From: Candidatus Anderseniibacteriota bacterium | Lineage (GTDB): Bacteria; Patescibacteriota; Andersenbacteria; UBA10190 | Assembly (NCBI GenBank): GCA_040900375.1 | Contig: JBBDZC010000021.1 | Coordinates: 5,258 to 69,257, forward strand | DNA length: 64,000 nt | Reading direction: 5' to 3' | Part shown: piece after piece, positions 5,275-22,236 of the stretch | Layout of the letters: every line of letters starts with the position of its first letter | Position numbering within the stretch: the first letter of the stretch is position 1 | Program-made: the position numbers and the translations under genes | The notes under the pieces: model-generated | What the model was told of the DNA's origin: nothing | What the model saw: the letters and a program-made list of their open reading frames with translations, nothing else | Database searches by the model: none

Positions 5275-7065
5275 GTGTCACTACCCGATCAGGGGAGAGA
5301 TTACTACGGATTTTTACTACCTGGTATACTAAGAGCGATGCCTGACGCTGTTGATGAATCAACTTTGCGAAGTTTAGTTGAGCAAAAGCTGCTCACTGTG
5401 ACCCAAGCGGACGAGATTTTAAAAAAACTAGGAGAAGGGGGAGCCGACCTACACAGTTTGGTGGTTGATAGTGGCTTGATTAAAGATCATGACTTTACGC
5501 AGGTGCAAGCGGCCGTTCTCGGCATGACCTACATTGATTTACGAGCGGTCACCATTCCCCGAGAGCTGCTCAATATTATTCCTGAATCAACGGCGCGGGA
5601 GCACTTGATCGTAGCGTATGAGCAAACGGACAGTGAGTTGAAGCTGGCCATGGTCAATCCCAGTGATCGACAGATTGTCGAGTTTATCCGCAAAAAGGTG
5701 GATATGCCGATTGCGGTTGCCTTGGCGAGCCGCCAGGGGATTATGGCGGCCCTGCAGCAATACCAACAGACCCTGACACTTGAGCTGGAGAATGTGCTCG
5801 CCACGAGTAAGAGCGTGATGACGGAAGCCGATCTCAATAAAGCGGCGGAAGATTTACCGGTCGTGCGCATTACGGACCTCATTTTAAAACATGCTATTTT
5901 ACAGGGCTCATCTGACATCCATATTGAACCGACGGAACAGAACGTGATTGTCCGCTACCGCATTGATGGCATTTTGCATGATGCATTAACGCTTCCCCGG
6001 TATGTGCTCGCGGGTCTGGTGGCGCGGATTAAAGTCTTGAGCCGGTTGAAGATTGATGAGCATCGGCTGCCGCAAGACGGTCGCTTCAAGATTGAAAGTG
6101 AGGATTATAAGATTGCTTTTAGAGTTTCGATCTTACCTGTCTTTGATGGTGAGAAAGTAGTCATGCGTCTCCTGGATGAGTCGGGGCATGGCTTGGGGCT
6201 CGATAGCATTGGCTTGCGCCCGTCAGTCCTAGAAGTGTTTCGCCGTAACATTAACAAACCAAATGGGCTCATTTTAGTCACTGGCCCGACCGGCTCGGGA
6301 AAAACGACCACGCTCTATGCGGCGATGAAAGAGCTAAATCAGGCGGACGTAAACATTAGTACGGTGGAAGATCCAATTGAGTACCGTATGCCGCGCATTA
6401 ATCAGACACAAGTCAATCCTAAGATCGGCCTCACTTTCTCGAACGGCTTACGTTCACTGGTGCGTCAAGATCCCGACATTCTGATGGTCGGTGAAATTCG
6501 CGATGAAGAGACCGCCTCGCTAGCAGTCAATGCGGCGCTCACCGGTCACTTAGTGCTTTCCACGTTGCACACCAATAGTGCGGCCGGGGCCTTGCCGCGC
6601 CTGCTTGATATGAAGGTCGAAGCTTTTCTGGTCGCCTCGACGGTCAATCTCTTGATAGCGCAGCGTCTCGTGCGGCGGTTATGCCAAGAGTGTCGGCGCG
6701 AGCAGAAATTAACGAAGGATGTGGTGACGGAGTTAGCCAAGTCATTTAGTATAGAGACACTGGTGGCGACCTTGGTGCGGGAAGGGGTAGTGGCCGACAA
6801 GCAAGCTCTCGAAGACTTAGTGGTTTATGAAGCGGTTGGTTGTAAGCTGTGCCAGGACGGTTACAAAGGCCGCAGCGGGATCTATGAGTTGTTGGAAATG
6901 ACTGACTCGATTCGCAAGATTATTACTTCCAAGACGACAACGGCCGAACTGGAGGACGCCGCGCGAGCGGAGCAAGGCATGGTCACCATGATTGAAGATG
7001 GTTTTATTAAGGTGGTTGAGGGACAAACGACTATTGAAGAAGTGATGCGTGTTTCCATGGAGTAA
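5275..7065 (+). CDS. pilB: Type IV pilus assembly ATPase PilB (GspE family)
   Basis: N-terminal GSPII_E_N-like region, Walker A GPTGSGKTTT, tetracysteine motif CQECRRE...CKLCQDGY; GTG start with GGAGG 9 nt upstream. Confidence 0.9.
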   Translation: MSLPDQGRDYYGFLLPGILRAMPDAVDESTLRSLVEQKLLTVTQADEILKKLGEGGADLHSLVVDSGLIKDHDFTQVQAAVLGMTYIDLRAVTIPRELLNIIPESTAREHLIVAYEQTDSELKLAMVNPSDRQIVEFIRKKVDMPIAVALASRQGIMAALQQYQQTLTLELENVLATSKSVMTEADLNKAAEDLPVVRITDLILKHAILQGSSDIHIEPTEQNVIVRYRIDGILHDALTLPRYVLAGLVARIKVLSRLKIDEHRLPQDGRFKIESEDYKIAFRVSILPVFDGEKVVMRLLDESGHGLGLDSIGLRPSVLEVFRRNINKPNGLILVTGPTGSGKTTTLYAAMKELNQADVNISTVEDPIEYRMPRINQTQVNPKIGLTFSNGLRSLVRQDPDILMVGEIRDEETASLAVNAALTGHLVLSTLHTNSAAGALPRLLDMKVEAFLVASTVNLLIAQRLVRRLCQECRREQKLTKDVVTELAKSFSIETLVATLVREGVVADKQALEDLVVYEAVGCKLCQDGYKGRSGIYELLEMTDSIRKIITSKTTTAELEDAARAEQGMVTMIEDGFIKVVEGQTTIEEVMRVSME

Positions 7066-7297
7066 TTGCCGGGGCGATTGAGGGATTGTCAGTTCGGTTA
7101 TCGTTGCTCAAGAAAGTCTGTTAAACTAAGCACATTGATTAGTCTTTGAGCTTATTGTATGCCCCGTAGAATCACCTCGATCACCCTCTCGTCTTAAAAT
7201 ATATGGATACAATACCTACCAACCTTATTTGTCAGTCACCGCTTCCTCTCACCGCTGTCCGGCCTACGCCGGACATATCGAGGTAGCTCTACGGGGT

Positions 7298-8515
7298 ATG
7301 CCGATTTATACCTTCCAGGGTCGTAAGGAAACCACCGGTGAGATAGTCTCGGGTATGCGCGAAGCAACTTCGCATGCTGTTCTGGGGCAGGATTTATTAA
7401 CTGAAGGAATTCTCTTAACGCGCTACCAGGAGCAAAAACAGCGACTACCAGGAGCCAGTATTCTCTCGAGTTTTTTCTCACGGGTGCCCATTCTCGAGCG
7501 CGTGCTCTTTGCCCGGTATTTTTCTTTAATGCTTAGAGCGGGTCTCGATGTTAAACAAGCGCTGATGGCCTTAGGGCAGCAGACACGCAGTCGGCCAATG
7601 CGTACGGCTGTGGAATCAATTGTTCAGGGAGTAGATCGCGGCAGTACATTGGCTGATAGCATGGCGGTTTTCCCCCTGGCTTTTCCGGCAATCTTTGTCA
7701 GTTTTGTGCGGGTAGGGGAAACAACCGGCCGTCTTCAGGAAGCTTTGCAAGTCTTGGCGCAACAGTTGCAGAAAGAATATGAGCTGCGACGGGCAGTGCG
7801 GGGAGGATTGATGTATCCGGCCGTGATTCTGACGGCATTGATTGCTGTCGGTTTTGCGATGTTGGTATTCGTTGTGCCCAAACTTGCCGAAGTTTTTGAG
7901 GGCTTCAAGGTAGAGTTACCCCTGCCCACGCGTATTTTAATTGGTCTCGGTGATTTTTTTTCGAGTTATTGGTACCTCGTCATCGCGGGAAGCATCCTGA
8001 GTATTTTTGGCTTGACGTTGCTGCTACGAATTCCTTCTTTTAAAGGCAGCATCCTGCACGCCTTTTTATTTATGCCAATTATCGGACAGATTATGCAGCA
8101 GGTGAATCTGGCGCGCTTTACTCGTAACTTAAGCTCGCTGCTTAAGAGCGGTGTTTCCTTTGTGGAGGCACTCGAAATTTTGGGTGTCAATACCCCTCAT
8201 CCCAGCTATGCTCGGGTCTTTGCGGGAGCGAAGGAACACGTCAAACAAGGTAAATTATTGAGTGACTTTTTGGTTGATTTTAAGCGACTCTTTCCCCCGT
8301 TGGTGGTCAACGTTATTAAAGTGGGCGAAGAAACAGGAGCCCTCGACGAAGTGTTGCAGGAAATTGCACTTTTCTACGAAGGAGAAGTTGATCAGACAAT
8401 GAAGAATTTAACCTCAATTATGGAGCCTGTTTTAATGGTAATTATTGGCTTGGCGGTCGGGGCCTTGGCAATCTCGGTCATCTCGCCCATCTACAATTTA
8501 GTGAACGTTATCTAA
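7298..8515 (+). CDS. pilC: Type IV pilus inner-membrane platform protein PilC (GspF family)
   Basis: Two T2SSF-like repeats and 3 TM segments; start chosen at ATG 7298 (MPIYTFQG...), longer ORF begins with TTG at 7229. Confidence 0.85.
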   Translation: MPIYTFQGRKETTGEIVSGMREATSHAVLGQDLLTEGILLTRYQEQKQRLPGASILSSFFSRVPILERVLFARYFSLMLRAGLDVKQALMALGQQTRSRPMRTAVESIVQGVDRGSTLADSMAVFPLAFPAIFVSFVRVGETTGRLQEALQVLAQQLQKEYELRRAVRGGLMYPAVILTALIAVGFAMLVFVVPKLAEVFEGFKVELPLPTRILIGLGDFFSSYWYLVIAGSILSIFGLTLLLRIPSFKGSILHAFLFMPIIGQIMQQVNLARFTRNLSSLLKSGVSFVEALEILGVNTPHPSYARVFAGAKEHVKQGKLLSDFLVDFKRLFPPLVVNVIKVGEETGALDEVLQEIALFYEGEVDQTMKNLTSIMEPVLMVIIGLAVGALAISVISPIYNLVNVI

Positions 8516-8565
8516 AGTCTGTTAGTTAGTATTTTGCCTCAAGTTTTATGACCGGGAGATGGGTA

Positions 8566-9894
8566 GTGACTAAACGCGCAGCGCATAGGGGCTTTACGAT
8601 CATCGAATTACTCATTGCGACATTTATTATCGGGACGGTCGTGACCGGCCTCTTCGGGCTTTTTGTTTTAAATTTACGCGCGGCGCAAGAAGGCGAGCGG
8701 CGCCTGGTGGCGATTGCGTTGGCAAATGAGCGGGCAGAAATGATTCGCAATTTACCCTACAGCAATGTGGGAACGAGTGGCGGGATCCCGGCCGGCAGTA
8801 TTTTGCAGGAGGAAGTTATTGCCAGGCCCACTTCGACCTACACCGTGCGGACTGATGTTCGCTATGTCGATGACTCTTTTGATGGGACGGCTGGCGGCGC
8901 GCCAAACGATACTGTCAATACTGACTACAAGCAGGCTCGCATTGAAGTGGCGTGGCAGAGTCCCTCGTCGCCTGCTCCTATCCTCTTGGTCATGGTGGTA
9001 GCGCCCCCGGGCGTGGAAGGAGGAGAAGCAGCAGGGACATTGAGCTTCCAAGCCTTAAACGCCGCTGCTGCTGGGATACCCGATGCGAGCTTGCGGATTG
9101 TGAACATGGCAACTAATCCGACGATCGATGTTACGACGAACACGGATAACAACGGTCGCATTCTCTTGCCTGGGCTGCCCGAAAGTGCGGGCAGCTATGA
9201 GCTAACTCTGACTAAGGCAGGCTACACTAGTGAGCAAACATATACTGAAACGGCAACCTTTATTCCTGATACCGACCATGCCCATCTCTCGATGCTCCAA
9301 GGACAGGTGACTCCTAAGACATTTAGTATTGACCTGGTAAGCGAGATGGCGATTGCCACCCAAGACGAAGAGCTGCAGCCGCTGGGTAACATTGCCTACA
9401 GCTTACGTGGGACTAAGACGATTGGTGTTGATGAGACGGAGACACCGGTCTATCGTCTCAATGTCCAAGAGCAAACGAACGCTAGTGGCACAGCGACTCA
9501 CCCTGATATTATCTGGGATAGCTATGATTTTTCTATTGATGGGTTAGCCACCGGCTATGATATCAAAGAGACCAGTATGCTGTTGCCGGCCAAGGTGAAC
9601 CCAGGAGAGCAGGCTGATCTTACCGTGACGCTTGTGCCCCATACACCGATTTCTCTCCATGTGACCGTGGCTACACCCGAGGGGTTGCCCATTGATAACG
9701 CAACCGTCCAGCTGACCCAAGTTGGTTACGACACCACATTAGGGACTGGGGCCTTGGGCCAAGTCCTCTTTACTGACTTGCCCTTTAACGCTGATTATAC
9801 GCTCTCTATTACCGCTCCCGGCTGGCAAGTTTTTAATGAGGTGATAACTGTGACTAATACGACGCGGACACGGGCTGAACTGACTAGCGCATGA
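8566..9894 (+). CDS. Large prepilin-like protein (type IV pilin N-terminus + carboxypeptidase-regulatory-like beta-sandwich domains)
   Basis: Leader M(V)TKRAAHRG|FTIIELLIA with G-1, F+1, E+5 and hydrophobic helix; later NMATNPTIDVTTNTDNNGRILLPGLP...YELTLTKAGY resembles CarboxypepD_reg fold; GTG start at 8566 preferred over ORF-track start 8548. Confidence 0.7.
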   Translation: MTKRAAHRGFTIIELLIATFIIGTVVTGLFGLFVLNLRAAQEGERRLVAIALANERAEMIRNLPYSNVGTSGGIPAGSILQEEVIARPTSTYTVRTDVRYVDDSFDGTAGGAPNDTVNTDYKQARIEVAWQSPSSPAPILLVMVVAPPGVEGGEAAGTLSFQALNAAAAGIPDASLRIVNMATNPTIDVTTNTDNNGRILLPGLPESAGSYELTLTKAGYTSEQTYTETATFIPDTDHAHLSMLQGQVTPKTFSIDLVSEMAIATQDEELQPLGNIAYSLRGTKTIGVDETETPVYRLNVQEQTNASGTATHPDIIWDSYDFSIDGLATGYDIKETSMLLPAKVNPGEQADLTVTLVPHTPISLHVTVATPEGLPIDNATVQLTQVGYDTTLGTGALGQVLFTDLPFNADYTLSITAPGWQVFNEVITVTNTTRTRAELTSA

Positions 9895-10538
9895 GACAGT
9901 TATTTACTAAACGACAGGCCGACTTAACCAGCCAACGGGGCCTGACGGCTCTGGAAATTGTGATTACGGTCATGATTAGCTCTCTACTGATTGCGGCTCT
10001 TTTGCGGTTTATGTCATTCGGTCATCCGCTGGCAAAAACAGCCTATCTTCAAGCGCAATCTACTGACACTGCGCGACTCCAACTCAAACGTATCGCTAAA
10101 CTATTGCGGGAAGCACGCTATGCCGATACGGGTGCCTATCCCTTACTGGAAGTTAGTCCCCAGCGAATCATTTTCTTTGCTAATGCTGATACGGATGCAA
10201 CCACCGAACGTATTCGCTATGAACTCAATGGCACCAACCTGGAGCGAGGTATGGTTAAGCCGAGTGGAGATCCTTTAACCTACGACCTAGCCCAGGAGCA
10301 AGTGACGGTCGTTACCAGCGCCGTGCGTAATGGCAGCGACCCAATCTTTACCTACTATACTGGTGATTATCCGGCTGACCCTACACCGCTCACCCCCACC
10401 GACCTTACCGAGGTGAAGTATATTCAGTTCCGCTTGCTCATTGACGCTGACCCGGCGATTGATCCGCCGGCCATTGAAGTAGTTTCGCAGGTTCAACTAC
10501 GCAACCTTAAAACGAACCTAGGGGAGACAGTCGAGTAA
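9891..10538 (+). CDS. Minor pilin / pseudopilin with prepilin-type N-terminal signal
   Basis: TSQRG|LTALEIVITVMISSLLIA; 4-nt overlap (ATGA) with upstream pilin gene. Confidence 0.7.
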   Translation: MRQLFTKRQADLTSQRGLTALEIVITVMISSLLIAALLRFMSFGHPLAKTAYLQAQSTDTARLQLKRIAKLLREARYADTGAYPLLEVSPQRIIFFANADTDATTERIRYELNGTNLERGMVKPSGDPLTYDLAQEQVTVVTSAVRNGSDPIFTYYTGDYPADPTPLTPTDLTEVKYIQFRLLIDADPAIDPPAIEVVSQVQLRNLKTNLGETVE

Positions 10539-10551
10539 ACGGCACCGGGAC

Positions 10552-11193: not shown

Positions 11194-11330
11194 AGACAGA
11201 AGGAATAACGCTTGTATTGTACGACTAAATTAGAAAGAGTACCAGCGTTCACGAGAGAGAATACTTTTTGGCCGTCACTTGTATACCTGGTCTTAAGTGG
11301 CCAAACGCCTTACAATTATTTCTATCACCT

Positions 11331-11834
11331 ATGTTTCCTTCTCTAGGCCGCTTAGGCAACCGCGGCAGCATTATGCTGTTAGTATTAATTCTCCTTGTCG
11401 TGTTTGTGATCATCATGACCGCTTCCGTCCGTTTCATTGCGCGCCAGTCGACCCAGACTGCCAATCAAGAGCAAGAGGAGCAGGCGTTTGAGATCGCCGA
11501 TGCTGGTATTAACTACACCCTGTGGTTGCTCGATTCCGAGGGCGGCAACTTTACGCCAGAACAGCTTGAGGCAGGACCGGATGGCGGCGGTCCGCCAACG
11601 GCGGATACTGAAAATCACCTCATCCACAATGATCAGAGTGAGCTTATCGGTAGGTTTTCGCTGGATTTTTCCGATGCTGATAACGTGGCGGGAGTTTTAA
11701 CTGTCCGCGCCACGGGCAAAGACGAGATTAAACCCGATCTTTGTCAGGTGATCGAGGCGAAAGTCCAGAAAGATGCTAACGGTGAGTACCGCCTCTATCG
11801 GTGGGACCACTTGGTAGGGTATCCTTGTTCTTAA
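11331..11834 (+). CDS. PilX N-terminal-domain protein (pilus-associated, TM anchored)
   Basis: GSIMLLVLILLVVFVIIMTAS followed by AFEIADAGINYTLWLL, matching the PilX_N pattern also seen in the 14743 gene. Confidence 0.6.
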   Translation: MFPSLGRLGNRGSIMLLVLILLVVFVIIMTASVRFIARQSTQTANQEQEEQAFEIADAGINYTLWLLDSEGGNFTPEQLEAGPDGGGPPTADTENHLIHNDQSELIGRFSLDFSDADNVAGVLTVRATGKDEIKPDLCQVIEAKVQKDANGEYRLYRWDHLVGYPCS

Positions 11835-11853: not shown

Positions 11854-13209
11854 ATGACCCCTTCTCGTTTACGGCACCAACGCGGCTTTTCGCTGGCGGA
11901 GGTAATTATTATGGTCGCCATTGGCACGGTGGTGATCATCGCCCTGGCTATTTTTGTCGGGCGATCATTTACGGTATCACGGGAACAGTTTGAACAGGTA
12001 CGCATCACCGAAGACGGCCGGAAAGAAATGGAGCGCATGAGTGATACTCTGCGTAACGCTAGCTACGTGGACTTAGACGGTAATGGCTACACCATGGATG
12101 TGGGTGAGCAGTGGCTGCAAGTTGGTAAAGAATACGAGATTAGGGTTTTTAGTAATGTTGACATCGATCCGGAAATGGAACTCGTGCGCTATTTTGTTGA
12201 TAGTGCCGAGCCAACCGAGCTTAAGCGAGGAGTGATTGAACCTGATGGTACAGCATATAACTCGCCCGAGAGCATCCAGATACTTTCGCGCAGCGTGCGC
12301 AACTTGCAGCAGGAGACGCCCATTTTTTCTTACTATGATGTCAATGGTGCGGCCCTTGCGCCGCCGGTGAGTGGGGACACACTCAAAGCAGTCGCGCGCG
12401 TTGGCATTGACCTGAAAATAGATATTACGGCGCAGATCCGTCCGGATTCAGCCTTGCTTTACACTGAAGTGTCACCGCGTACTAATCGGTGTTCCGCGTA
12501 TGAGGGATGCACCAGTGGTGCTGGAGATGATAGTGGCGGTACTGGCGGTACGGGTTGTGTTGATCCCGGGGGAGCACAGTTGCCTACCTGGTCGTATAAG
12601 TCGCCATCTTTTGTGGAAGACGCGGGGCAAACCTGTAAGGCGCGGTGCGAGACGGAGGGAAGTACCACCACGTGTCCCTGGTTTGTAACCTTTTCTTGGA
12701 ATGGTGACCCCGAGGGCTATGTGGCCGCCTACTGCTCATGTCAAGAAGCAGTCTACCCAATACCGTTGCCCGACAACCGACAGTACGGTCAGTACACCCA
12801 GTACTACAAAGATCGGTGGAATGGGTGTGTGGCTCAAGGCCAATCGGGTGAAGTATACTGTGATCCAGGGTATGACTTACCCCAAGACGAGCTACGCCCC
12901 TGCGGGTACCAATGTAGTGCTGCTTCCCCTGCACCGAGCCCGAGTGACGTAGCGGTTGATCTTAAAGTCAACAACAGCGATGGGCCAGTTGGTGTAAGTT
13001 ATAACGATTTTGTGACGCTTAGTTGGACTTCAGCAAACGCTACTAGTTGCACGGCGTCTGATGCCTGGTCAGGAACCAAGAGCCCCGAGGGATCAGAGGT
13101 TAACGGGCCATTAACTGATGTCACAACGCCCTATATTTTTACACTTACCTGCACGGGGCCGAGCGGGGAGGCACAAGACAGCGTGACGGTTAATGTTTCT
13201 ATTGTCTAA
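11854..13209 (+). CDS. Large cysteine-rich prepilin-like protein with C-terminal Ig-like domain
   Basis: RHQRG|FSLAEVIIMVAIG class III signal; about 18 Cys between residues 210 and 360; C-terminal beta-sandwich-like region VAVDLKVNNSDGPVGVSY...TLTCTG. Confidence 0.7.
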   Translation: MTPSRLRHQRGFSLAEVIIMVAIGTVVIIALAIFVGRSFTVSREQFEQVRITEDGRKEMERMSDTLRNASYVDLDGNGYTMDVGEQWLQVGKEYEIRVFSNVDIDPEMELVRYFVDSAEPTELKRGVIEPDGTAYNSPESIQILSRSVRNLQQETPIFSYYDVNGAALAPPVSGDTLKAVARVGIDLKIDITAQIRPDSALLYTEVSPRTNRCSAYEGCTSGAGDDSGGTGGTGCVDPGGAQLPTWSYKSPSFVEDAGQTCKARCETEGSTTTCPWFVTFSWNGDPEGYVAAYCSCQEAVYPIPLPDNRQYGQYTQYYKDRWNGCVAQGQSGEVYCDPGYDLPQDELRPCGYQCSAASPAPSPSDVAVDLKVNNSDGPVGVSYNDFVTLSWTSANATSCTASDAWSGTKSPEGSEVNGPLTDVTTPYIFTLTCTGPSGEAQDSVTVNVSIV

Positions 13210-13237
13210 GACCGAGCGGGTGGGGTATAACCTGAAT

Positions 13238-14632
13238 ATGCTGCTGACACAACGAGATTTTTTAGTGCTGGCCGTTTTCATAGGGATTGGCTTGGTGACG
13301 CATTTTTCTGTTCTCGGCTGGCCCGACCAGGTGATCTTTGATGAAGTTCATTTCGGCAAGTTTATTACCGCCTATTGCTGCACGGGCGAGCGCTTTTTCG
13401 ATATTCATCCGCCGCACGCTAAATTACTGATCGCCGGTACAAGCTGGCTGGGCGGTTACCGAGGCGGCTTTGCCTTTGACCATATTGGGCAAGTCTACGA
13501 GGGAGTCCCTATAGCTGCGATGCGCTTTGTGCCAGCGGCGGCGGGGATGATATTGCCGCTGGTGATCTTTGTGGTGATCCGCCAATTAGGCGCATCATTT
13601 GGGGTTGCGTTGGTAGGAGCTGCCGCAGTGCTGCTGGACAACGCGCTGACTATTCAAACTCGGGTGATTGCTTTGGATGGTGTGTTGCTTGTGGCTACGT
13701 TTGGTAGTTTAAGTGCGTACCTAGCGGGTGAGCGAGCTCACGGCTGGCACCAGGCCGGTTATTTCCTGTTGGCGGGGGCTTTAGCGGGGTTGGCAGCCGG
13801 GACAAAGTTTACCGGTTTAGCCGCATTGGGATTACTCGGAGCAATTGTGGTGGTACGTATGTTGCAGCGTATAGACAAACAGACCGTGATGGCTGGCATT
13901 ACTAATGGCTTACTTATTGTGGCCAGCGCGCTGATTGTGTACCTGGCGGGTTGGGTGCTGCATTTTGCACTTTTACCTCTCCCGGGGAGCGGGGATGCTT
14001 TTCATGTGCCTCATAGTTTATTGCCGCCGCAAAGGCCCAATCCCAGTAGTTTCTTGCGAGAAACAGTGGCTCTCCATAAGGTGATGTTTACCGCTAACTA
14101 TAATCTTACCGCGACTCACCCCAATGCGAGTTCATGGTGGAGTTGGCCGCTAATGCAGATGCCCGTATTCTATTGGACGGACACGGCGGGGTTGCGCCAT
14201 ATATATTTTGTCGGTAATCCGGTAGTCTGGTGGGGAGTAACGCTATTATTTGTCGTTGCCGTCTTGGTTTGGATTATTCAGCTCGGCCAGCGCCGGCGCG
14301 AAGCCGCCTCCGGCATTATATGGATTAGTGTCGTTGGCTTTTGCATTGCGATGCTGCCTCTTGTTCGTGTGCCCCGCGCTCTCTTTCTCTATCATTATTT
14401 GACACCGCTTCTCTTTTCGCTGCTAGCGGGACTTGTCTGGCTGGATCGAGAGCTAGCTCGGGTGCGCCTTACGCTAGCGGGGCAGCGGAGACTTATAGTG
14501 GGAGTCTTAGCGGTTCTCCTGGCAGGGTTTTTGTTCATGAGCCCACTGACGTATGGTTTGAAGCTGGGTGAGACCACGCTCGAGAAAGACGCTCGTTTGC
14601 AGACAATACTCTTTTGGTTGCCGGGACCATAA
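13238..14632 (+). CDS. GT39/PMT-family (GT-C fold) dolichyl-phosphate-mannose protein mannosyltransferase-like membrane glycosyltransferase
   Basis: VIFDEVHFGKF...FDIHPPHAKLL matches the PMT loop-1 DE motif; about 10 predicted TM segments. Confidence 0.75.
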   Translation: MLLTQRDFLVLAVFIGIGLVTHFSVLGWPDQVIFDEVHFGKFITAYCCTGERFFDIHPPHAKLLIAGTSWLGGYRGGFAFDHIGQVYEGVPIAAMRFVPAAAGMILPLVIFVVIRQLGASFGVALVGAAAVLLDNALTIQTRVIALDGVLLVATFGSLSAYLAGERAHGWHQAGYFLLAGALAGLAAGTKFTGLAALGLLGAIVVVRMLQRIDKQTVMAGITNGLLIVASALIVYLAGWVLHFALLPLPGSGDAFHVPHSLLPPQRPNPSSFLRETVALHKVMFTANYNLTATHPNASSWWSWPLMQMPVFYWTDTAGLRHIYFVGNPVVWWGVTLLFVVAVLVWIIQLGQRRREAASGIIWISVVGFCIAMLPLVRVPRALFLYHYLTPLLFSLLAGLVWLDRELARVRLTLAGQRRLIVGVLAVLLAGFLFMSPLTYGLKLGETTLEKDARLQTILFWLPGP

Positions 14633-14742
14633 ATTATAGCAGCTAAGGCACAGGCTCACTCTTAGATTCTTGATCTTACCCAAGGAGAGTGGCGAGTGAT
14701 CAGGTATCCCAAGTCTCGTCAGTAGTGTGCTAGGATATACGC

Positions 14743-16128
14743 ATGAGGTCCTTCTTGGCGAGGGGAAGAAGTGCGCGCCGGGGCAGTATTTTGATCATGA
14801 CATTGGTTTTTATGTCAATGTTTGCCGTCATTTTTATTGCCTTATCCGGCTTAGTCAATCGTTCGTACCGGGAGACCGTCTTGCAAGCGCACGACGAGTT
14901 GGCTTTTCAGATCGCGGAGGCAGGACTTAACTATGCCCGGTGGCGCTTGGCACATGAACCCGAAAATTTTTCGGCGGAAAGCAAGACCGTCACTGATCAG
15001 TTTGCTGGTGACTTGGGAACTTATGATCTTACTTTTGATTCACCTATTGAGGGGGGGACCATCACGGTCATTACCGCAGTGGGAAAAACTGCCTCGCAAC
15101 CACTGCGGGAGGTAACGCTGCGCGCGCGGTACGGCATACCTTCGCTGGCCCGGTACGCCTATATTACCAACAGTGATGTTCGCTATGCCGCCGTCATGAG
15201 AGGACCCTTTCACGCCAATGGCGGCATCCGCATGGACGGTACGTCGGATAGTATTGTCCAGAGCGCTAAGACCACTTATACGTGTCGGCCGATCCATGGG
15301 TGTGACAACGAGACAAAGCCGGGCGTCTGGGGTACCGGCGAGATTCAAGAACTCTGGGAATTTCCGGTCACGGCGATTGATTACAATGCCTTAACCAATG
15401 ATTTAGCAACTATGAAAACCATTGCTCAAGAGGCTACTACCTACTACGGCGCCTCGGGAGCGTTTGGCTACCAAATAGTTTTTAATGCTGATAATACGTA
15501 TGCTCTTTACCGGGTGACTCAAAAGACGAGCCCGGTAGATTCGTGTGATTATAACGCCAGTGGGGAGTTTAGCTGCACGAGTCTTTCTCATGATGTGCAA
15601 ACGATGGCGTTGCTCGAGACGAAACCAGTGCCGTCCGGCGGGGTACTTTTTATTGAAGACAACTTGTGGGTGCGGGGAGAAATTAGAGACCGGATTACCG
15701 TCGCGGCGGGGCGGTTTCCGGATTCACCGGCCACGCATGCTGATATTATTACTAACGGTAATATCACGTACGGAGGGGTTAAAGATGGCACACGGGTCTT
15801 TGGCGCCATTGCCCAGCGCAATCTGCTCATTCCTTATTCTGGTGCGCCTGATGTCTTTACCCTTGACGGGGCGTTTATTGCCCAAAAGGGAAAATTTGGA
15901 CGACGTCATTATCCTTCTGGTAGCCATCGCCTGAAAACAAGTATTGATATTTATGGCATGGTGGCCAGCAACTTAGTACCAGGGACCACGTGGACGAGTG
16001 GAGGAACAGTGGTCAGCGGCTACCAGGAGAAAGTACAATCCTATGATCCTAATCTACTTTATAATCCACCCCCTTATTTTCCAACTACGGGTCAGTACGA
16101 ATTTATTTCATGGGAAGAGGAGCAGTAA
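14743..16128 (+). CDS. Large PilX N-terminal-domain protein (pilus-associated)
   Basis: GSILIMTLVFMSMFAVIFIALSG then AFQIAEAGLNYARWRL, paralogous to the N-terminus of the 11331 gene. Confidence 0.6.
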   Translation: MRSFLARGRSARRGSILIMTLVFMSMFAVIFIALSGLVNRSYRETVLQAHDELAFQIAEAGLNYARWRLAHEPENFSAESKTVTDQFAGDLGTYDLTFDSPIEGGTITVITAVGKTASQPLREVTLRARYGIPSLARYAYITNSDVRYAAVMRGPFHANGGIRMDGTSDSIVQSAKTTYTCRPIHGCDNETKPGVWGTGEIQELWEFPVTAIDYNALTNDLATMKTIAQEATTYYGASGAFGYQIVFNADNTYALYRVTQKTSPVDSCDYNASGEFSCTSLSHDVQTMALLETKPVPSGGVLFIEDNLWVRGEIRDRITVAAGRFPDSPATHADIITNGNITYGGVKDGTRVFGAIAQRNLLIPYSGAPDVFTLDGAFIAQKGKFGRRHYPSGSHRLKTSIDIYGMVASNLVPGTTWTSGGTVVSGYQEKVQSYDPNLLYNPPPYFPTTGQYEFISWEEEQ

Positions 16129-16229
16129 GAGATCGATTAGGTCTTGGCCTATGTTACCACCACCAGCAAATGTTATACTAAATGTACACCACTACTTTGG
16201 TGGCCGTCCTACATTGGCATATACTCTAT

Positions 16230-17255
16230 ATGATCGGTATTGATATTTCTGATCGCTCTGTGAAAGTGGTGCGGCTGTCAAATCGGGCTGATCACAAGCT
16301 GCTGACGCACTGTTGGCAGGAAGTCCCTCTCAATGTCATTGAGAAAGGGGTCATTAAAGACACTAAAGTGATGCAAGAAGTGTTGCGTCATGCTCTGCAG
16401 CGGTGCAATTTGAGTTGGGATAGCAAGGATGCCGTGGTGGCTTCAATTCCAGAGACACAATCATTCTTACGGGTGATTGAAATTCCGCTCATGGACGAAA
16501 GCGAGATTGGTGAGGCAATTCAATGGGAAGTGGCTCAGCATATTCCCTTTGGTTTAGAGAATGTCTACATTGATTGGCAACCAATCCATAGCGGTAAACC
16601 GCCGACGCCGGGCCGCCACGAAGTGCTTGTCGGGGCGGCGGAAAAGAGTGTGGTTGATCCTCTCTTGCACGTGCTCGCGACGATTGGTTTAGACATTGCG
16701 GCCTTTGAATTAGAGAGCCAGGCCATTGTCCGGTCGCTGGTTTCGCGTGAACTTGAACAACATCGCGGTCTCCTGATTGTCGATTTGGGTGGCTCGGCAA
16801 CTAATGTGGTTATTTACGACCGGGGAACGATTCGCTTCACCGCCAGTTTACAGAAAGGGTCCTACAGCCTTCTCCACCCGCTCACGCCCACCGAGGCGCA
16901 AGCGGTCACTGGTCCGCCGAAAGAAATTGTGGAAGCGGACCGAGCCATGCTCGCCTCCAAGTTACAAGCTGTGCATGAAGAGTTGGTAATTGAAATTCAG
17001 GGCATTGTAGAGTTTTACAATGGCATTGACACAAACCACCAGGTTAAGGAAATTATCCTCACCGGCGGGGGCGCCAATTTACCCGGTTTCGATCAGGCAG
17101 TACTCAAGTATTTTGATAATGTGCTGGTCCATCGCGGTAATCCATGGGTTAATATCTTGCCTCCCGGGAAGGACGCTCATCCGCCTTTTGGCTTATTAGA
17201 AGCGGTTCATTTCTCCACAGCGCTGGGGTTAGCACTGCGGGCAGCGGTTAAGTAA
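16230..17255 (+). CDS. pilM: Type IV pilus assembly protein PilM (actin-like ATPase), copy 1
   Basis: MIGIDISDRSVKVV start, ASKHA fold motifs (DLGGSATNV, LTGGGANLPG). Confidence 0.85.
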   Translation: MIGIDISDRSVKVVRLSNRADHKLLTHCWQEVPLNVIEKGVIKDTKVMQEVLRHALQRCNLSWDSKDAVVASIPETQSFLRVIEIPLMDESEIGEAIQWEVAQHIPFGLENVYIDWQPIHSGKPPTPGRHEVLVGAAEKSVVDPLLHVLATIGLDIAAFELESQAIVRSLVSRELEQHRGLLIVDLGGSATNVVIYDRGTIRFTASLQKGSYSLLHPLTPTEAQAVTGPPKEIVEADRAMLASKLQAVHEELVIEIQGIVEFYNGIDTNHQVKEIILTGGGANLPGFDQAVLKYFDNVLVHRGNPWVNILPPGKDAHPPFGLLEAVHFSTALGLALRAAVK

Positions 17256-17263
17256 ATCTGGCT

Positions 17264-17800
17264 ATGAAAGAAGAAATAAATTTACTCCCACCAGCTTTTC
17301 AAAAGTTACGACGCCGGCGGATCTACCTGGTGCGTATCGGTGAGCTTATGCGCCGCATTGATTTCGTGATCATTCTCATTGGGATTGTGTTTGTCGCACT
17401 CTACGGTGCTCTTTTTAGTTTGCAGGCTAATTTGGAGCGCAAGCTCGCGGCCGCGGGTACAACCGAGCAAAGCACAGAAGAAAGAGTTCGTTCAGTTAAT
17501 GAGTTGCTGACAGCAGTCCATAGCCGTACTGTGCCGGTGCTACCATGGATGCCGGGGGTAGGGCAAATCATTCAGTTGTTGCCGCCGAGTATTGTGCTGA
17601 CAGAATTAAGATTGGACGAAGTGAAAAATGTTCTCACGATCCAGGGAATATTCTCGGATCGCCAGGCGATTGTTAAGTTTGAGCAAGAGGTGGCAGCTCT
17701 CCCCTGGGTCGAAAAAGTGGAAGCGCCCCTGCGGAATTTTGCCACGGGTGAGAAAACGGAATTTACCTTTACGGTGACTCGTAAAATAAAAAAGCCATGA
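17264..17800 (+). CDS. pilN: PilN-like protein, copy 1
   Basis: N-terminal INLLP motif followed by single TM. Confidence 0.75.
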   Translation: MKEEINLLPPAFQKLRRRRIYLVRIGELMRRIDFVIILIGIVFVALYGALFSLQANLERKLAAAGTTEQSTEERVRSVNELLTAVHSRTVPVLPWMPGVGQIIQLLPPSIVLTELRLDEVKNVLTIQGIFSDRQAIVKFEQEVAALPWVEKVEAPLRNFATGEKTEFTFTVTRKIKKP

Positions 17801-18438
17801 ACACTCTTCTCCAGGCCCGTGAGCGGCGGTTGTTGTTTAACCGGGGATTGGAACTACTGATTATCGTGGTCTTAATTATTGCTTTGTTTTACTTTCGGGA
17901 ACTCATCCATAGTAAGCGCGTCATGGTCTACCAATTGCAACGTCAGCTTGATGAGGCGCCACAATATGCCGCGCAGCAAGTTAGTTTGCGGACGGAGCTG
18001 GAGAAATCAGCCCATGATATTGTCCGGATTGAGTCCTTGCTCGTCCGACGCGAAGCGCTCGGCGATTTTGTTAGCTTATTAGAAAAGCAGGCACGGCAGA
18101 ACAGGGTGACGCTGCGGGTGCCTGACATTAAAGAAGAAATGGTCCTTAGTGCCGAAGGCAAGCCGGTGGCGGCGACCGGGCCGTATCGCGACATTCGTCT
18201 GCAAGTTACCGCGACCGGTGAGCCCAATGACTTACTCCAACTGCTCCATCAATTAGAACACCTGCCGCATGCTGTTCGTTTGCCGGCCTGGAGTATCACC
18301 ACCACTAACACAGCGGTGTTACTTGATCTTCGTCCCCAGGCACCAGTGATCGGACCTGATGGCAAAGAGGTACCAGTGGTGGCTCCTGGGGGATTACTCG
18401 AAGCCACGATGATCTTAACTATTCGCCAAGATTCATGA
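17797..18438 (+). CDS. pilO: PilO-like protein, copy 1
   Basis: Position after pilN with 4-nt overlap; N-terminal TM and coiled-coil region. Confidence 0.55.
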   Translation: MNTLLQARERRLLFNRGLELLIIVVLIIALFYFRELIHSKRVMVYQLQRQLDEAPQYAAQQVSLRTELEKSAHDIVRIESLLVRREALGDFVSLLEKQARQNRVTLRVPDIKEEMVLSAEGKPVAATGPYRDIRLQVTATGEPNDLLQLLHQLEHLPHAVRLPAWSITTTNTAVLLDLRPQAPVIGPDGKEVPVVAPGGLLEATMILTIRQDS

Positions 18439-18797
18439 AGAAAAAACTGCCGGCAATCCGTATCCGCATGGTGGGCGCGAGCCTGGGACGTGCAGCCCGC
18501 GCTGTACCCCAGTATCTGCTCTTTCAACATCCACTAGCAGTGCAGGTAGTGTTACTGCTCGTGGGTATGGGCTTGGGATTATATGTTGTCTTACGGGTAC
18601 TCTTTACTGATCCCACTGAACTCTCACTTGAGGTGTCGCAAAAGATACCGCAGCTTATGACTGAACAGTTAGATGAACTAGAGTTCTGGATCGAAGAACA
18701 GCACGCGGCATTTTCTACGCCCTTACCGCTGGGGACGCGACAATATTTTCAGGTGATTCGGGAGGGGCAAAGCCAGGTGATCCAGGAACCATTTTAG
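18435..18797 (+). CDS. Small single-TM protein, 4th gene of pilMNO module 1 (PilP-like role possible)
   Basis: 4-nt overlap with pilO; hydrophobic segment VVLLLVGMGLGLYVV. Confidence 0.4.
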   Translation: MKKKLPAIRIRMVGASLGRAARAVPQYLLFQHPLAVQVVLLLVGMGLGLYVVLRVLFTDPTELSLEVSQKIPQLMTEQLDELEFWIEEQHAAFSTPLPLGTRQYFQVIREGQSQVIQEPF

Positions 18798-18849
18798 GGG
18801 CTGGGCGTTGCGCCCGCGGATGTCGGTGGTCTAATCCCGTGGTAGTATA

Positions 18850-19911
18850 GTGAATATGATTGGCATTGACATTTCTGATCGGTCGATAAAGGTTGTCGAA
18901 ATTTCCGGAGGGGAAAACCCTAAACTTCGTACGGTCTGTTGGTCGGCACTTAACCCTAATCTTATTCGGCGCGGTATTGTGCAGGATGTGGCGGCTGTGA
19001 TGCAGGGCTTAGAACAGGCGCTCAACAAATGCTCGCCGGTGCCGGTAGAGGGAAAACGAGTGGTGTTATCTATTCCGGAAACACAATCATTTGTACGTGT
19101 CCTGGATTTACCCGCGATGAGTGAACGAGAAATGAATGAAGCAGTGCAGTGGGCGATTCGCCAGCACATCCCGTTTGACTTAGAGCGTGTCTATCTTGAT
19201 TGGCAACCGCTGGCGACATCACAAACTACCCCCACTCACCGCCAAGTGCTTGTGGGTGCGGCCCAGCGCGATGTCATTGATCCGCTGCTCCAAGTAGTGG
19301 ATGCTCTGGGTCTGGAAGTAGCGGCGCTCGAATTAGAAGCCCAGGCGATTGTCCGTTGCCTCTTGCCGCAAAATGCGGCCGATGTCATGGGGGTTTTGCT
19401 GGTTGATTTAGGGGCAACCTCTACGAATGTTATTTTTGTCGATGAAGGGGCAATGCGCTTTACGACAAGTATTCAGCAGGGCGGTGATGACTTAACGCAG
19501 CAGTTGGCGCAAGAGTTCAAACTGCAGCCCACGATTGCGGCGGAGAAAAAAGCTTTAATTGGAGTCCAAACTAATGGTAATGAGGCGCAGATTGCGGCGA
19601 CGCTACGCTCGGCCACGCTGCGTCTGGTCCAGCAAGTCAGTCAAGTGGTCACGGAATATACGTCCCAGTTACAATCATCACAGGGGCTTCGGGCAATTCT
19701 TTTGGCTGGAGGCGCGGCAAATTTACCAGGCTTGGTCAGTATTTTTGCAGAAGTCTTTCCTGGTATACCCGTCCAGCTTGGCAATCCATGGATTAATCTG
19801 ACGATGGGTAATGGCAAGGAGACAAGTCCGCCTCTCTCGAATGCGGATGCGGCGCACTTTACCACGGCGATTGGCCTCGCTCTCCGGTCGTTAGAGTACG
19901 CGCCGCGGTAG
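18850..19911 (+). CDS. pilM: Type IV pilus assembly protein PilM, copy 2
   Basis: About 50 percent identical to copy 1 (IGIDISDRS, IPETQSF, HIPF, VLVGAA, ALELE-QAIVR blocks conserved). Confidence 0.85.
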   Translation: MNMIGIDISDRSIKVVEISGGENPKLRTVCWSALNPNLIRRGIVQDVAAVMQGLEQALNKCSPVPVEGKRVVLSIPETQSFVRVLDLPAMSEREMNEAVQWAIRQHIPFDLERVYLDWQPLATSQTTPTHRQVLVGAAQRDVIDPLLQVVDALGLEVAALELEAQAIVRCLLPQNAADVMGVLLVDLGATSTNVIFVDEGAMRFTTSIQQGGDDLTQQLAQEFKLQPTIAAEKKALIGVQTNGNEAQIAATLRSATLRLVQQVSQVVTEYTSQLQSSQGLRAILLAGGAANLPGLVSIFAEVFPGIPVQLGNPWINLTMGNGKETSPPLSNADAAHFTTAIGLALRSLEYAPR

Positions 19912-19927
19912 ATCTGGATTTTTTACT

Positions 19928-20509
19928 ATGCGTGAAATTAATCTTTTGCCTCCCTCGCGCCGTCAATCCCTGCGGCGGGAAGTGACGTTGGCTTCCATCG
20001 GACGTTTTTTGAGTAGCTTAATGGTCGGTTTAGGCATGCTGACTGTTGGGGCAGTGTTGGCGATGATCGGTTTGTGGATTTTCTTCTATACTGTGGCCGC
20101 GACCAATAATGTTGAGTTTGAGCGGACCATTGCTCAGTATCGTGAGCTGCGAGATGGAATTGCCGAGCAGAATATTTTTCTTAATTACATTTATGGCTTA
20201 GGCACCGGGCGGCAAGTATGGTCTGATTTTTTGCCAGGGTTGTTTACTAGTATTCCTCCCGGTGTGGAGATTGCCACGATGAGTGGGCGATCGGTTATAA
20301 ATGAGGAAGGGGTAGTGGAGAGTACTTTTACTGTTTCAGGGCGGGCCGCGGCGCGTAGTACACTCACCATTTTTGCTGATCGCCTGCGTCTGTTGCCCGA
20401 CGTGGCTCAGGTTGATGCACCCAGTTCTAATTTGATTCAGCGAGAGAACCCACTGTATCGCTTTACCCTGCAGTTAAAAGACAAGATAATTGAGGAGGAA
20501 GAGCTATGA
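19928..20509 (+). CDS. pilN: PilN-like protein, copy 2
   Basis: MREINLLPP motif plus TM. Confidence 0.75.
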   Translation: MREINLLPPSRRQSLRREVTLASIGRFLSSLMVGLGMLTVGAVLAMIGLWIFFYTVAATNNVEFERTIAQYRELRDGIAEQNIFLNYIYGLGTGRQVWSDFLPGLFTSIPPGVEIATMSGRSVINEEGVVESTFTVSGRAAARSTLTIFADRLRLLPDVAQVDAPSSNLIQRENPLYRFTLQLKDKIIEEEEL

Positions 20510-21111
20510 AAGTCTTGGCCCAAACGAGGACCAGCCAACAGTATCAAAAAATCGTACTTCGCTCGATTATGCTGGTTATTTTAATCGTGGCCCAGCCTTT
20601 TCTATGGAGTATGGTTGCAGGTGTAGCCAATCGGGTCCATGCGCAACAGTCACAGAAACAACAGATTATCGATGTGCAGGCCCGCACTGCCCAAATTAGA
20701 GAAATTAATGTCAGCCAGAAAGAATTTCTTGATCAGCTTGATGTGGTGGTACCGCTGGCGGGCTCACTGTCCCAAATTATTGAGCGGCTGGAGCGCTTAG
20801 CCACCGACCGGCAGCTGCGGTTGTCAATTCTTGATATCAAGGAAGATGTTTTGGAGGAAGCAACGGATTTGGAGAATATTCCGGTGCAGCGTTTTCGGAT
20901 TAGCTTGCAGGTTACGGGCACCCCCGCCCAGTTGTTGACCTATATTGATGCGGTGGAGCATGTACAGGAATTGACTATTTTGGAGGACTGGTCCTTTGTG
21001 GCAGCCACGGCCCCGGTTAGTTTCCCGGCTCCGGATGCGGTCTATCCTTATACCGCGACGATGAGCCTTTTATTCTTTTTACAGTCGGAAATCGATGCCG
21101 TCGAAGAGTAA
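20506..21111 (+). CDS. pilO: PilO-like protein, copy 2
   Basis: Position and topology equivalent to copy 1; 4-nt overlap with pilN2. Confidence 0.5.
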   Translation: MKVLAQTRTSQQYQKIVLRSIMLVILIVAQPFLWSMVAGVANRVHAQQSQKQQIIDVQARTAQIREINVSQKEFLDQLDVVVPLAGSLSQIIERLERLATDRQLRLSILDIKEDVLEEATDLENIPVQRFRISLQVTGTPAQLLTYIDAVEHVQELTILEDWSFVAATAPVSFPAPDAVYPYTATMSLLFFLQSEIDAVEE

Positions 21112-21433
21112 ATCATTCCTGATTCGCCTGTTACCCCGCTTTAATACTTTCGGGGCTTTTATCTTCGCCTGGTTGGGCACGGCGATCATGCGCCTGCTAG
21201 TTATTTTTATTGGCGTGTTGCTTCTTGCCTATATGCTGTATCTTAATGTGTGGCAACCGCTGCGCCAGGAGGTAGAATTGCCCCCGGGGGTTACCCCCAC
21301 TAATCCCGAGCTAGATGTTACCCGCTTAAAGGAAATTAATAACCAGCGCTCTCAACGTTTTCAAAGTATCCGTCGTAATTTCGAGACGCGAAATTTTCTG
21401 TTTGTCCCCCAGCAAACTTCAGGAACGCCTTAA
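21095..21433 (+). CDS. Small single-TM protein, 4th gene of pilMNO module 2
   Basis: Hydrophobic segment LLVIFIGVLLLAYMLY; position mirrors 18435 gene. Confidence 0.4.
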   Translation: MPSKSKSFLIRLLPRFNTFGAFIFAWLGTAIMRLLVIFIGVLLLAYMLYLNVWQPLRQEVELPPGVTPTNPELDVTRLKEINNQRSQRFQSIRRNFETRNFLFVPQQTSGTP

Positions 21434-21452
21434 TAGAGAAGAGCGAGCGACC

Positions 21453-21863
21453 ATGTCTCGTGTCCTAGTTTTTGGTACATTTGATCCCTTGCACGAAGGC
21501 CATCATAATTTCTTTAATCAGGCAAAAGCCGAAGGGACACACTTGACTGTCGTAGTGGCCCGCGATAGTCAAGTGCGCGTGCAGAAAGGACGGGAACCCC
21601 ACCAGCCCGAGAGAGAGCGCTTGCAGGCGGTCGCGCGCGCGAGCGCTGTTGATCAAGTCTTGTTGGGAGAAGAAGGTGAGCAGAGCTACGCACTCTTGGG
21701 GCGTCTGGCCTTCGAGGTACTGGCGGTAGGATATGATCAGGAACCGGACGATGCAGAAATTCAGGAGCAACTTCGGGCGTGTGGTAAACAGGCGGTGCGC
21801 TTGGTGAGACTGAAACCATATCAACCAGACATCTATAAGTCATCATACCTACGCAGTAAGTGA
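21453..21863 (+). CDS. Cytidylyltransferase-like nucleotidyltransferase (HxGH superfamily; RibL/TagD-like)
   Basis: VLVFGTFDPLHEGH near the N-terminus; start at ATG 21453. Confidence 0.6.
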   Translation: MSRVLVFGTFDPLHEGHHNFFNQAKAEGTHLTVVVARDSQVRVQKGREPHQPERERLQAVARASAVDQVLLGEEGEQSYALLGRLAFEVLAVGYDQEPDDAEIQEQLRACGKQAVRLVRLKPYQPDIYKSSYLRSK

Positions 21864-21902
21864 TCGGGAGTTTTATGCTTAATCTGCTATCCTAGATCTC
21901 AT

Positions 21903-22235
21903 ATGCCAGCTTCTCTAACTAGTGAGCAACTGCGAGCTGCCTTGCGGACAGTGCTTGATCCGGAACTAGGTTTTTCAATCGTAGATTTGGGCTTAGTCTA
22001 CGCGCTGGACTACGACGGCGCTGGCAATGTGCACATTCTCTTAACCTTGACTACGCCAACATGTCCCCTGCAAGACCACTTCCGACAAGCTATTACTACC
22101 GCTTTACAATCATTGCCGCAGGTACATAATGTTGCTATTGATTTTACTTTTACGCCTCGTTGGAACCTAGAGAAAGCGACCGCCCAAGTGCGGGAAGGAC
22201 TTGCCTTACTCGGCATAGGGACACTGCGGTGGTGA
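21903..22235 (+). CDS. DUF59/MIP18-family Fe-S cluster assembly protein (SufT-like)
   Basis: VLDPELGFSIVDLGLVY...TTPTCPL characteristic of DUF59. Confidence 0.7.
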   Translation: MPASLTSEQLRAALRTVLDPELGFSIVDLGLVYALDYDGAGNVHILLTLTTPTCPLQDHFRQAITTALQSLPQVHNVAIDFTFTPRWNLEKATAQVREGLALLGIGTLRW

Positions 22236-22236
22236 C

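Follow-up and report, generated by a model that had tools for sequence, protein, structure and literature searches.

Positions 16230-21433 of the window (the whole 64-kb stretch of DNA analysed here) hold two consecutive, co-directional PilM-PilN-PilO-X modules on the plus strand, inside a type IV pilus (T4P) operon. X denotes a small bitopic membrane protein that follows PilO in each module; the eight genes are referred to below as M1, N1, O1 and X1 (module 1) and M2, N2, O2 and X2 (module 2). The operon belongs to an uncultured member of Candidatus Andersenbacteria, within the Candidate Phyla Radiation (CPR, or Patescibacteria), and its sequence comes from a metagenome-assembled genome (MAG). 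The succession of two four-gene modules in the same order had already been recognised in a first-pass annotation of this DNA, which called the arrangement unusual; searches of open-access full texts turned up no account of a single PilB/PilC operon shared by two alignment modules.

Two alignment modules behind one PilB-PilC pair

The genes of the two modules are as follows.

16230..17255, plus strand: PilM1, cytoplasmic actin-like ATPase-fold protein of module 1 (TIGR01175, PF11104)
17264..17800, plus strand: PilN1, with N-terminal EINLLPP, one transmembrane (TM) helix and an external domain
17797..18438, plus strand: PilO1, PilO/GspM-like bitopic protein (sub-threshold matches to T2SSM_b and NCBIfam GspM)
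18435..18797, plus strand: X1, 120-amino-acid (aa) bitopic protein, fourth module member, from an orthologue alignment
18856..19911, plus strand: PilM2 (TIGR01175, PF11104)
19928..20509, plus strand: PilN2, with the motif REINLLPP
20506..21111, plus strand: PilO2, whose family profile matches Myxococcus xanthus PilO 3jc8
21095..21433, plus strand: X2, 112-aa bitopic protein, diverged X1 paralogue, from an orthologue alignment and hhalign

The start of M2 was taken as the ATG at 18856; the list of open reading frames (ORFs) begins this gene at the GTG at 18850, and the deposited protein (P0001) starts two codons after that GTG. Overlaps of 4 nt, which had been described as common to the modules, are found at three of the six intra-module junctions (N1/O1, O1/X1 and N2/O2) and not at the other three, where O2 and X2 overlap by 17 nt and M and N are separated by 8 nt in module 1 and 16 nt in module 2. 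The gap between the modules measures 58 nt. A promoter and terminator scan of positions 5000-22500 returned counts within shuffle expectation, which gives no sign that the two modules are transcribed separately. GC content, overall and at third codon positions (GC3), is homogeneous across the operon.

Pairwise BLASTP aligns the two PilM copies at 42% identity (E = 2e-98), lower than the 50% or so first proposed, and the alignment contains all of the conserved blocks that had been singled out (IGIDISDRS, IPETQSF, HIPF, VLVGAA and ELE.QAIVR). The PilN copies share 24% identity (E = 8e-10) and the PilO copies 22% (E = 7e-7), while X1 and X2 give no significant pairwise match (E = 0.72). When families of orthologues were aligned with hhalign, module 1 matched module 2 with a probability of 99.8% for PilN and 99.3% for PilO, and X1 matched X2 over its full length with 63% probability (E = 7e-5). 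At the DNA level a single 150-nt patch at 69%, within pilM, is still detectable between the modules. A recent tandem duplication, or a recent horizontal acquisition of one module, is ruled out by this DNA comparison and by the GC and GC3 values.

Both PilM copies score above the cut-offs of two PilM models: TIGR01175 with 141.6 bits for M1 and 181.7 bits for M2 (curated cut-off 133), and PF11104 with 112.6 and 152.3 bits (cut-off 27). The phosphate-1 (GIDISDRSxK), phosphate-2 (VDLGxxxTN) and adenosine (GGxANLPG) motifs are present in each. An AlphaFold2 (AF2) model of protein P0104, 59% identical to M2, has a predicted local distance difference test score (pLDDT) above 90 in its PilM part. Its top matches in the PDB are the PilM structures 5eou (E = 2.5e-27) and 2ych (TM-score 0.86, root-mean-square deviation 2.9), with FtsA ranking behind.

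To place the two copies among relatives, two collection scans were made with a PilM alignment, which yielded 41 genome loci and 50 metagenome loci (given L numbers here); their ORFs were annotated with phmmer and with hidden Markov models (HMMs) built from the orthologues. A neighbour-joining tree with bootstrap was calculated for 98 PilM sequences, including 23 single-copy PilMs of other Parcubacteria/Paceibacteria-type genomes. The M1 clade, the M2 clade and the grouping of M1 with M2 against the 23 single-copy outgroup PilMs each received a bootstrap value of 100, so that the doubling goes back to one old event: the module was duplicated once at the base of the Andersenbacteria lineage, and its copies are ancient. 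All 38 proteins of the M1 clade share a 9-residue deletion and have lost the GGDxLT motif in subdomain 2B of the actin fold (PilM1 residues ~205-235, about 16840-16935 in the window), whereas M2 and the 23 outgroup PilMs retain both. Judged by this clade-wide change, M1 is the derived copy in sequence.

The identities of PilN and PilO are supported at the family level by profile searches. Each PilN has an N-terminal (I/L)NLLP motif followed by one TM helix; the INLLP motif had been reported for both window copies, and both do begin with EINLLPP (in N2 as REINLLPP). It is kept in 21 of 27 N1 orthologues, the rest having INLLS or INVLS variants, and in all 22 N2 orthologues. Against Pfam PilN (PF05137, gathering cut-off 22.8 bits) the window proteins score 20.2 bits (N1) and 14.5 bits (N2), and 24 of 36 N1/N2 orthologues match the family at E ≤ 0.01, the best with 4.4e-7. 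PilO1 of the window gives 19.9 bits with T2SSM_b (PF10741, cut-off 21.7) and 25.5 bits with NCBIfam GspM (NF040576, cut-off 60); PilO2 of the window matches none of the PilO/GspM family models (PF04350, PF10741, NF040576). Pfam PilO is matched by 7 of 24 O1 orthologues (best 1.2e-7) and by 5 of 22 O2 orthologues. Compared with PilO of Myxococcus xanthus (3jc8), the family profiles give E values of 0.089 (O1) and 0.002 (O2), and the comparison with 2rjz gives 0.068.

X1 consists of a basic N-terminus, one TM helix and an external segment of ~55 aa with a conserved L..ID.LE.WIE helix; in X1 and X2 alike about 50 external residues hold one conserved helix. Neither protein matches a Pfam family. 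An exhaustive HMMER search with X1 found 32 small relatives (E ≤ 1e-3) among 1.84 billion representative proteins, none of them an informative fusion, and a profile search with a mixed X1/X2/outgroup alignment found five proteins. Searches of the full-text literature, covering open-access papers, returned no description of the protein. In 15 outgroup loci with a single M-N-O set, an ORF of 90-112 aa with a single TM helix and the same layout stands right behind PilO; hhalign relates this outgroup X to X1 with 64% probability (E = 6e-5) and to X2 with 52% (E = 1.4e-4). Since single-copy relatives also carry X after PilO, the four-gene module is ancestral. The single-module Andersenbacteria loci that were checked have a small single-TM ORF in the same place, and X looks like a fourth module component that none of the profile libraries covers. 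The X-like ORF after PilO is unannotated in several other Parcubacteria (L033, L035, L038, L041 and L078-L080, among others). PilP was considered as an identity for X and ruled out: there is no lipobox, no beta-sandwich domain, no Pfam match and no secretin gene in the locus.

Both copies of the module are intact and equally constrained, and neither is decaying. Median identities among orthologues are nearly the same for modules 1 and 2 (PilM 0.53 and 0.53, PilN 0.29 and 0.31, PilO 0.24 and 0.25, X 0.22 and 0.24). The dN/dS ratio is about 0.02-0.3 in both modules wherever dS could be estimated; dS is saturated for most pairs of dual loci, so that the usable comparisons are those of close pairs and of dN or identity.

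Two pilin sets and their loss with the matching module

The genes that precede the modules in the operon are listed here, with their set assignments.

5275..7065, plus strand: PilB-type assembly ATPase, operon head (Pfam T2SSE 433 bits, and MshEN)
7229..8515, plus strand: PilC platform protein (Pfam T2SSF 190 bits, two repeats)
8548..9894, plus strand: pil448, set A pilin with class III signal RG/FTIIELL and Ig-like CarboxypepD_reg/SpaA domains
9891..10538, plus strand: pil215, set A minor pilin with RG/LTALEIV, paralogue of pil451
11268..11834, plus strand: PilX188, set B PilX-like pilin with RG/SIMLLVL and no Glu5, paralogue of the N-terminal 130 aa of Y461
11854..13209, plus strand: pil451, set B pilin with RG/FSLAEVI and a variable C-terminal region
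13193..14632, plus strand: PMT-family membrane glycosyltransferase, one copy (Pfam PMT 125.9 bits, PMT_4TMC 121.2 bits)
14743..16128, plus strand: Y461, set A, 461 aa, directly upstream of PilM1, with a PilX_N-like helix and then a beta-rich domain

The order is PilB, PilC, pil448, pil215, a leucine-rich-repeat (LRR) gene on the minus strand, PilX188 and pil451, followed on the plus strand by the PMT glycosyltransferase, Y461, M1-N1-O1-X1, M2-N2-O2-X2 and a cytidylyltransferase. Set A comprises pil448, pil215, Y461 and M1N1O1X1, and set B PilX188, pil451 and M2N2O2X2; the two sets surround a single PilB, a single PilC and a single PMT glycosyltransferase, and the 64-kb window contains one PilB and one PilC. 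In dual loci, and equally in those with module 1 only or module 2 only, the operon begins with an orthologue of PilB.

The pilin genes reveal that the doubling reaches beyond PilM-PilN-PilO-X. In hhalign comparisons pil215 matches pil451 with 99.9% probability (E = 2e-36, 191 columns), and PilX188 matches the N-terminal 130 residues of Y461 with 99.5% (E = 7e-23). PilX188 itself reaches 24.6 bits with Pfam PilX_N, just below the cut-off of 25.5. The first-pass annotation was therefore right to see a duplication and too narrow in confining it to pilM-pilN-pilO and the small gene, for two upstream minor-pilin genes also form paralogous pairs, and these are interleaved. Set A keeps the ancestral order, as can be seen from the outgroup locus L083, where PilC is followed by pil448-like, pil215-like and Y461-like genes and then by M and N.

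The two pilin sets differ in character. Set A pilins have a constant length and are 49-58% identical; pil448, which follows PilC in module-1-only and dual loci, has a median orthologue identity of 49%, and that of Y461 is 0.58, against 0.59 for PilC. In set B, pilin lengths span 152-859 aa and identities are 33-34% (pil451 orthologues: 224-859 aa, median 33%). Y461 has no Pfam domain. Its AF2 model (pLDDT 91.3) shows a helix at residues 11-71 and then an all-beta region, and a Foldseek search of the PDB with this model gave only three matches at E ≤ 0.001, all of them chains of ComZ (6qvi; E from 6.9e-12 to 5e-10, probability 1.0). ComZ is the Thermus beta-solenoid competence pilin and has been proposed as a DNA receptor at the pilus tip (PMC6561018). 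In its predicted fold Y461 thus resembles ComZ, which we take as a fold-level lead and not as a claim of membership. Some Y461 orthologues bear the Joint Genome Institute (JGI) label 'PilX'.

The tandem arrangement, recognised by its X1-to-M2 junction, was found in about 30 distinct Andersenbacteria contigs, and the dual state is the majority. Seven distinct contigs have module 1 only (L027, L028, L029, L030, L031, L032 and L068), with the order PMT-Y461-M1-N1-O1-X and then the cytidylyltransferase, in the place of which L027 has the next downstream genes. Three contigs have module 2 only (L017, L018 and L022), with the order PMT-M2-N2-O2-X-cytidylyltransferase. Where the upstream region of module-1-only loci is covered (L027, L029, L030, L032 and L068), it reads PilB-PilC-pil448-pil215-PMT-Y461-M1N1O1X, and PilX188 and pil451 are absent from all five. 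The fully covered module-2-only locus L022 reads PilB-PilC-large pilin-PilX-like-pil451-like-PMT-M2N2O2X and is devoid of pil215; Y461 is missing from all three module-2-only loci, and L017 and L018 agree with L022 as far as their sequence reaches. No single-module locus with upstream coverage combines one module with the pilins of the other. Either set therefore suffices alone with PilB/PilC in some lineages.

The single-module loci are nested among dual ones. One subclade, supported by bootstrap values of 98 in the M1 tree, 100 in the M2 tree and 100 in a tree of PMT plus cytidylyltransferase, includes the dual loci L019 and L021, the module-1-only loci L028/29/32 and L030/31/68 and the module-2-only loci L017/18/22, interspersed with one another; the module-1-only locus L027 lies outside it and groups elsewhere in the M1 tree. 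From these positions, we take the single-module states to be secondary, reciprocal losses. Rearranged forms of module 2 were also seen: PilM2 is directly followed by PilO2 in some relatives (L001/L016, 12581-13132; L050, 2236-2619), and in L001/L016 PilN2 sits after the cytidylyltransferase gene.

Two further lines of evidence concern the pairing of partners within a module. M and N are separate genes in the window, and two independent natural PilM2-PilN2 fusions were found in relatives, both of them in module 2: one of 543 aa in L019 (9923-11554, the same sequence as in L058), with three residues of linker before LNLLP, and one of 541 aa, P0104, with about 12. In the AF2 model of P0104 the linker, the LNLLP segment and the PilN ectodomain have pLDDT values below 50, the PilN half of the alignment having consisted of three sequences only. 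That such fusions occur at all lends indirect support to a binding of the N-terminal PilN peptide by PilM. In mirror-tree comparisons by partial correlation, corrected for the remaining genes of the modules and for a neighbouring housekeeping gene, the value averages 0.20 for pairs from one module and 0.05-0.08 for pairs across modules, and the partition found in the genome is the best of the eight possible splits of the four paralogue pairs.

Several other genes were noted in and around the operon. The PMT glycosyltransferase, which is dolichyl-phosphate-mannose protein mannosyltransferase-like, is a constant operon member in all Andersenbacteria loci, dual and single-module, and is a candidate pilin O-glycosyltransferase. 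The LRR gene (10552-11193, minus strand), located between the pilin genes, looks like an insertion specific to the window genome, given that its position is empty in relatives such as L005 and L045. Far from the operon, a further pilin-like gene (43878-44615, minus strand) encodes a protein of 245 aa with the N-terminus MKKTGFTLIEILIV, a possible major pilin. A DsbA/thioredoxin_4 protein is encoded near the operon at 25934-26674 (plus strand); thiol-disulfide oxidoreductases of this kind are reported to be enriched in CPR bacteria and have been linked to pilin folding (PMC6744442). A tmRNA gene lies at 31431-31837 (plus strand; Rfam RF00023, 87.8 bits); ARAGORN gave neither tRNA nor tmRNA in the window.

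A proposed shared motor and its rival readings

We favour, with a probability of roughly one half, a reading in which a single motor, shared by two alternative alignment complexes that each deliver a tip-pilin set of their own, would build two kinds of filament. Each PilN would bind its own PilM through the N-terminal (I/L)NLLP peptide and pair with its own PilO (and X) outside the membrane. The PilB-PilC motor would then be occupied by one complex or the other, each bringing in its own priming and tip pilins. The first filament would be composed of invariant pilins with a ComZ-like beta-solenoid tip, so that Y461 becomes a candidate DNA receptor on the strength of its model; the second would bear length-variable, fast-evolving pilins and would probably be adhesive. 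DNA capture as the role of set A is suggested by the ComZ-like tip, and adhesion as that of set B by the variability of its pilins. Two pilus types with a common PilB/PilC had been one of two explanations offered at first, and it gains from the reciprocal loss of modules together with their matching pilins and from the slightly stronger co-variation within modules.

A number of observations have to be set against this. The co-loss pattern amounts to only about 3-4 independent events, and there are dual loci whose pilins do not follow it: L006 and L025 carry both modules but no set B pilins in the locus, and L014 carries both but neither Y461 nor pil215. The mirror-tree test is a weak one, and adjacency of the genes may raise its values. 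Co-variation is also seen between the distances of M1 and those of M2 (partial r 0.29), which could reflect a mixed ring or simply partners in common, and the N-terminal motif is nearly identical in N1 and N2, so that cross-binding to either PilM is plausible. A 1.8-kb metagenome contig (L074, 1-1811) has the order M1-N1-X1-M2 without O1, N1 and X1 overlapping by 4 nt. The likeness of Y461 to ComZ is confined to the fold level, since the global TM-score is 0.26-0.31 (0.29 for the top match) and a profile of 37 Y461 orthologues run against PDB sequences recovered neither ComZ nor any other sequence-level match.

A bolder form of the same idea, which we put forward tentatively and hold to be doubtful as a whole, makes the alignment subcomplex a specificity adaptor: the choice of PilM-N-O-X would set the tip and hence the filament, with module 1 serving DNA capture, module 2 adhesion and X acting as a core component.

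The second of the explanations offered at first was a heteromeric platform, in which both modules would co-assemble, for instance as alternating N1O1/N2O2 dimers in the cage together with a mixed PilM ring, and serve all of the pilins. The modules do share one operon with short or overlapping junctions (X1 and M2 even overlap by 4 nt in L008 and L011), and should be co-expressed. The M1-M2 correlation and the almost identical PilM-binding motifs would be natural in such an assembly, as would the long stability of the dual state in most relatives, and the loss of O1 from L074 with N1 and X1 kept would be sensible if O2 substitutes. However, ten distinct contigs have one module beside an intact PilB/PilC operon, are nested among dual lineages and have kept their remaining genes under strong constraint (dN/dS 0.02-0.2). 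A mixed state thus cannot be obligatory: the genomes in which one module, be it 1 or 2, stands by itself indicate that each works alone. Co-variation is also higher within modules than between them. We therefore regard the obligate form as disfavoured and the heteromeric platform in general as unlikely; a facultative mixed assembly may occur.

Each module might instead have an ATPase and a platform of its own at another place in the genome, the shared operon being a matter of gene order only. There is a precedent in TM7x, whose two T4P loci both contain PilB, PilC, PilM, PilN and PilO (PMC11623550). Against this, one PilB-PilC pair heads the operon in the window and, wherever the sequence extends far enough, in its relatives, whether dual or single-module, no second PilB or PilC is found inside the 64-kb window, and CPR genomes are small. 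We consider two complete systems of this kind quite improbable.

The two modules could also do the same job and be kept for dosage or robustness, in which case the single-module genomes have simply lost a spare. That either module can be lost and that both are equally conserved would fit. Yet persistence of both copies intact would not be expected of such a pair across a phylum-level lineage, at identities of 42, 24 and 22% and under symmetric purifying selection. Nor does undifferentiated redundancy account well for the clade-wide 9-aa deletion in M1 with its lost GGDxLT, for pilin sets that differ sharply in character or for losses coupled to the matching pilins, and we give it little credence.

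The last possibility, a recent or degenerating duplicate, to which isolated split ORFs in MAGs (O1 in L009, O2 in L011) and the missing O1 of L074 might point, and which the first-pass annotation had tied to a disabled copy or to absence in close relatives, is refuted: the window and about 30 related contigs carry both modules in intact form, M1 and M2 are old, each being monophyletic against the other (bootstrap 100), almost no DNA similarity remains, and both modules are under purifying selection, with dN/dS well below 1 in each.

Were the bolder form of the favoured reading true, with the alignment subcomplex as a specificity adaptor, the pilus of module 1 would provide the DNA receptor missing from most CPR genomes, of which only 31% had a detected ComEA (PMC6744442), and that of module 2 would serve attachment to a host or surface. 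X would then be a previously unrecognised fourth core component of monoderm and CPR pilus machines.

Comparison with known pilus systems

The modules share the order M-N-O with the type IVa PilM-PilN-PilO(-PilP) systems of Pseudomonas aeruginosa, M. xanthus and Thermus thermophilus (5eou, 2ych, 3jc8), and are also alike in the PilM fold, in a PilN with an (I/L)NLLP motif and one TM helix, and in a bitopic PilO/GspM-like protein. They differ from these systems in that the Andersenbacteria locus has the module twice, lacks a secretin and PilP, and encodes as its fourth gene the bitopic X of ~110 aa; the PilN and PilO proteins of the window, moreover, fall below the Pfam gathering cut-offs. The natural PilM2-PilN2 fusions of relatives mimic the architecture of GspL of type II secretion, in which a PilM-like domain is fused to a PilN-like domain, and PilM-PilN fusions are known in Gram-positive T4P. 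In M. xanthus, alternative clusters of minor pilins and PilY1 reportedly prime one type IVa pilus machine; paralogous priming and tip sets are there said to share one motor, with only the tip sets multiplied and PilMNOPQ single.

CPR pili have been described with PilB, PilT, PilC, PilM, PilN, PilO and PilD and no secretin (PMC6744442). The closest parallel within the CPR comes from the Saccharibacteria member TM7x, which likewise has paralogous PilM1N1O1 and PilM2N2O2 as well as several pilin sets, and makes two pili with different functions (PMC11623550). Its modules are found at separate loci, each with its own PilB/PilC (PMC11623550), whereas in Andersenbacteria both modules and both pilin sets stand behind a single PilB-PilC pair. 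In this respect the favoured reading recalls T. thermophilus, where two types of filament are believed to come from a common motor (PMC13039148, PMC7203116, PMC6561018), although Thermus uses a single PilMNO for both pili (PMC13039148) and the Andersenbacteria alignment module is doubled. Thermus also has the ComZ/PilA2 competence tip, and ComZ is the only strong PDB fold match of Y461, with no similarity at the sequence level.

The Andersenbacteria locus bears on how a T4P machine picks among pilin sets and on what PilMNO does beyond scaffolding. It lends itself naturally to testing whether pilin specificity comes from PilMNO(X), because deletions ran in both directions and the single-module genomes can be read as natural knock-outs; the paired paralogues, the candidate CPR DNA-receptor pilin and X would also feed such a test. 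Multiplication is known so far for the tip sets in Myxococcus, for the pilins in Thermus and for the whole system in TM7x; in Andersenbacteria it is confined to the alignment module and two tip pilins, behind one motor.

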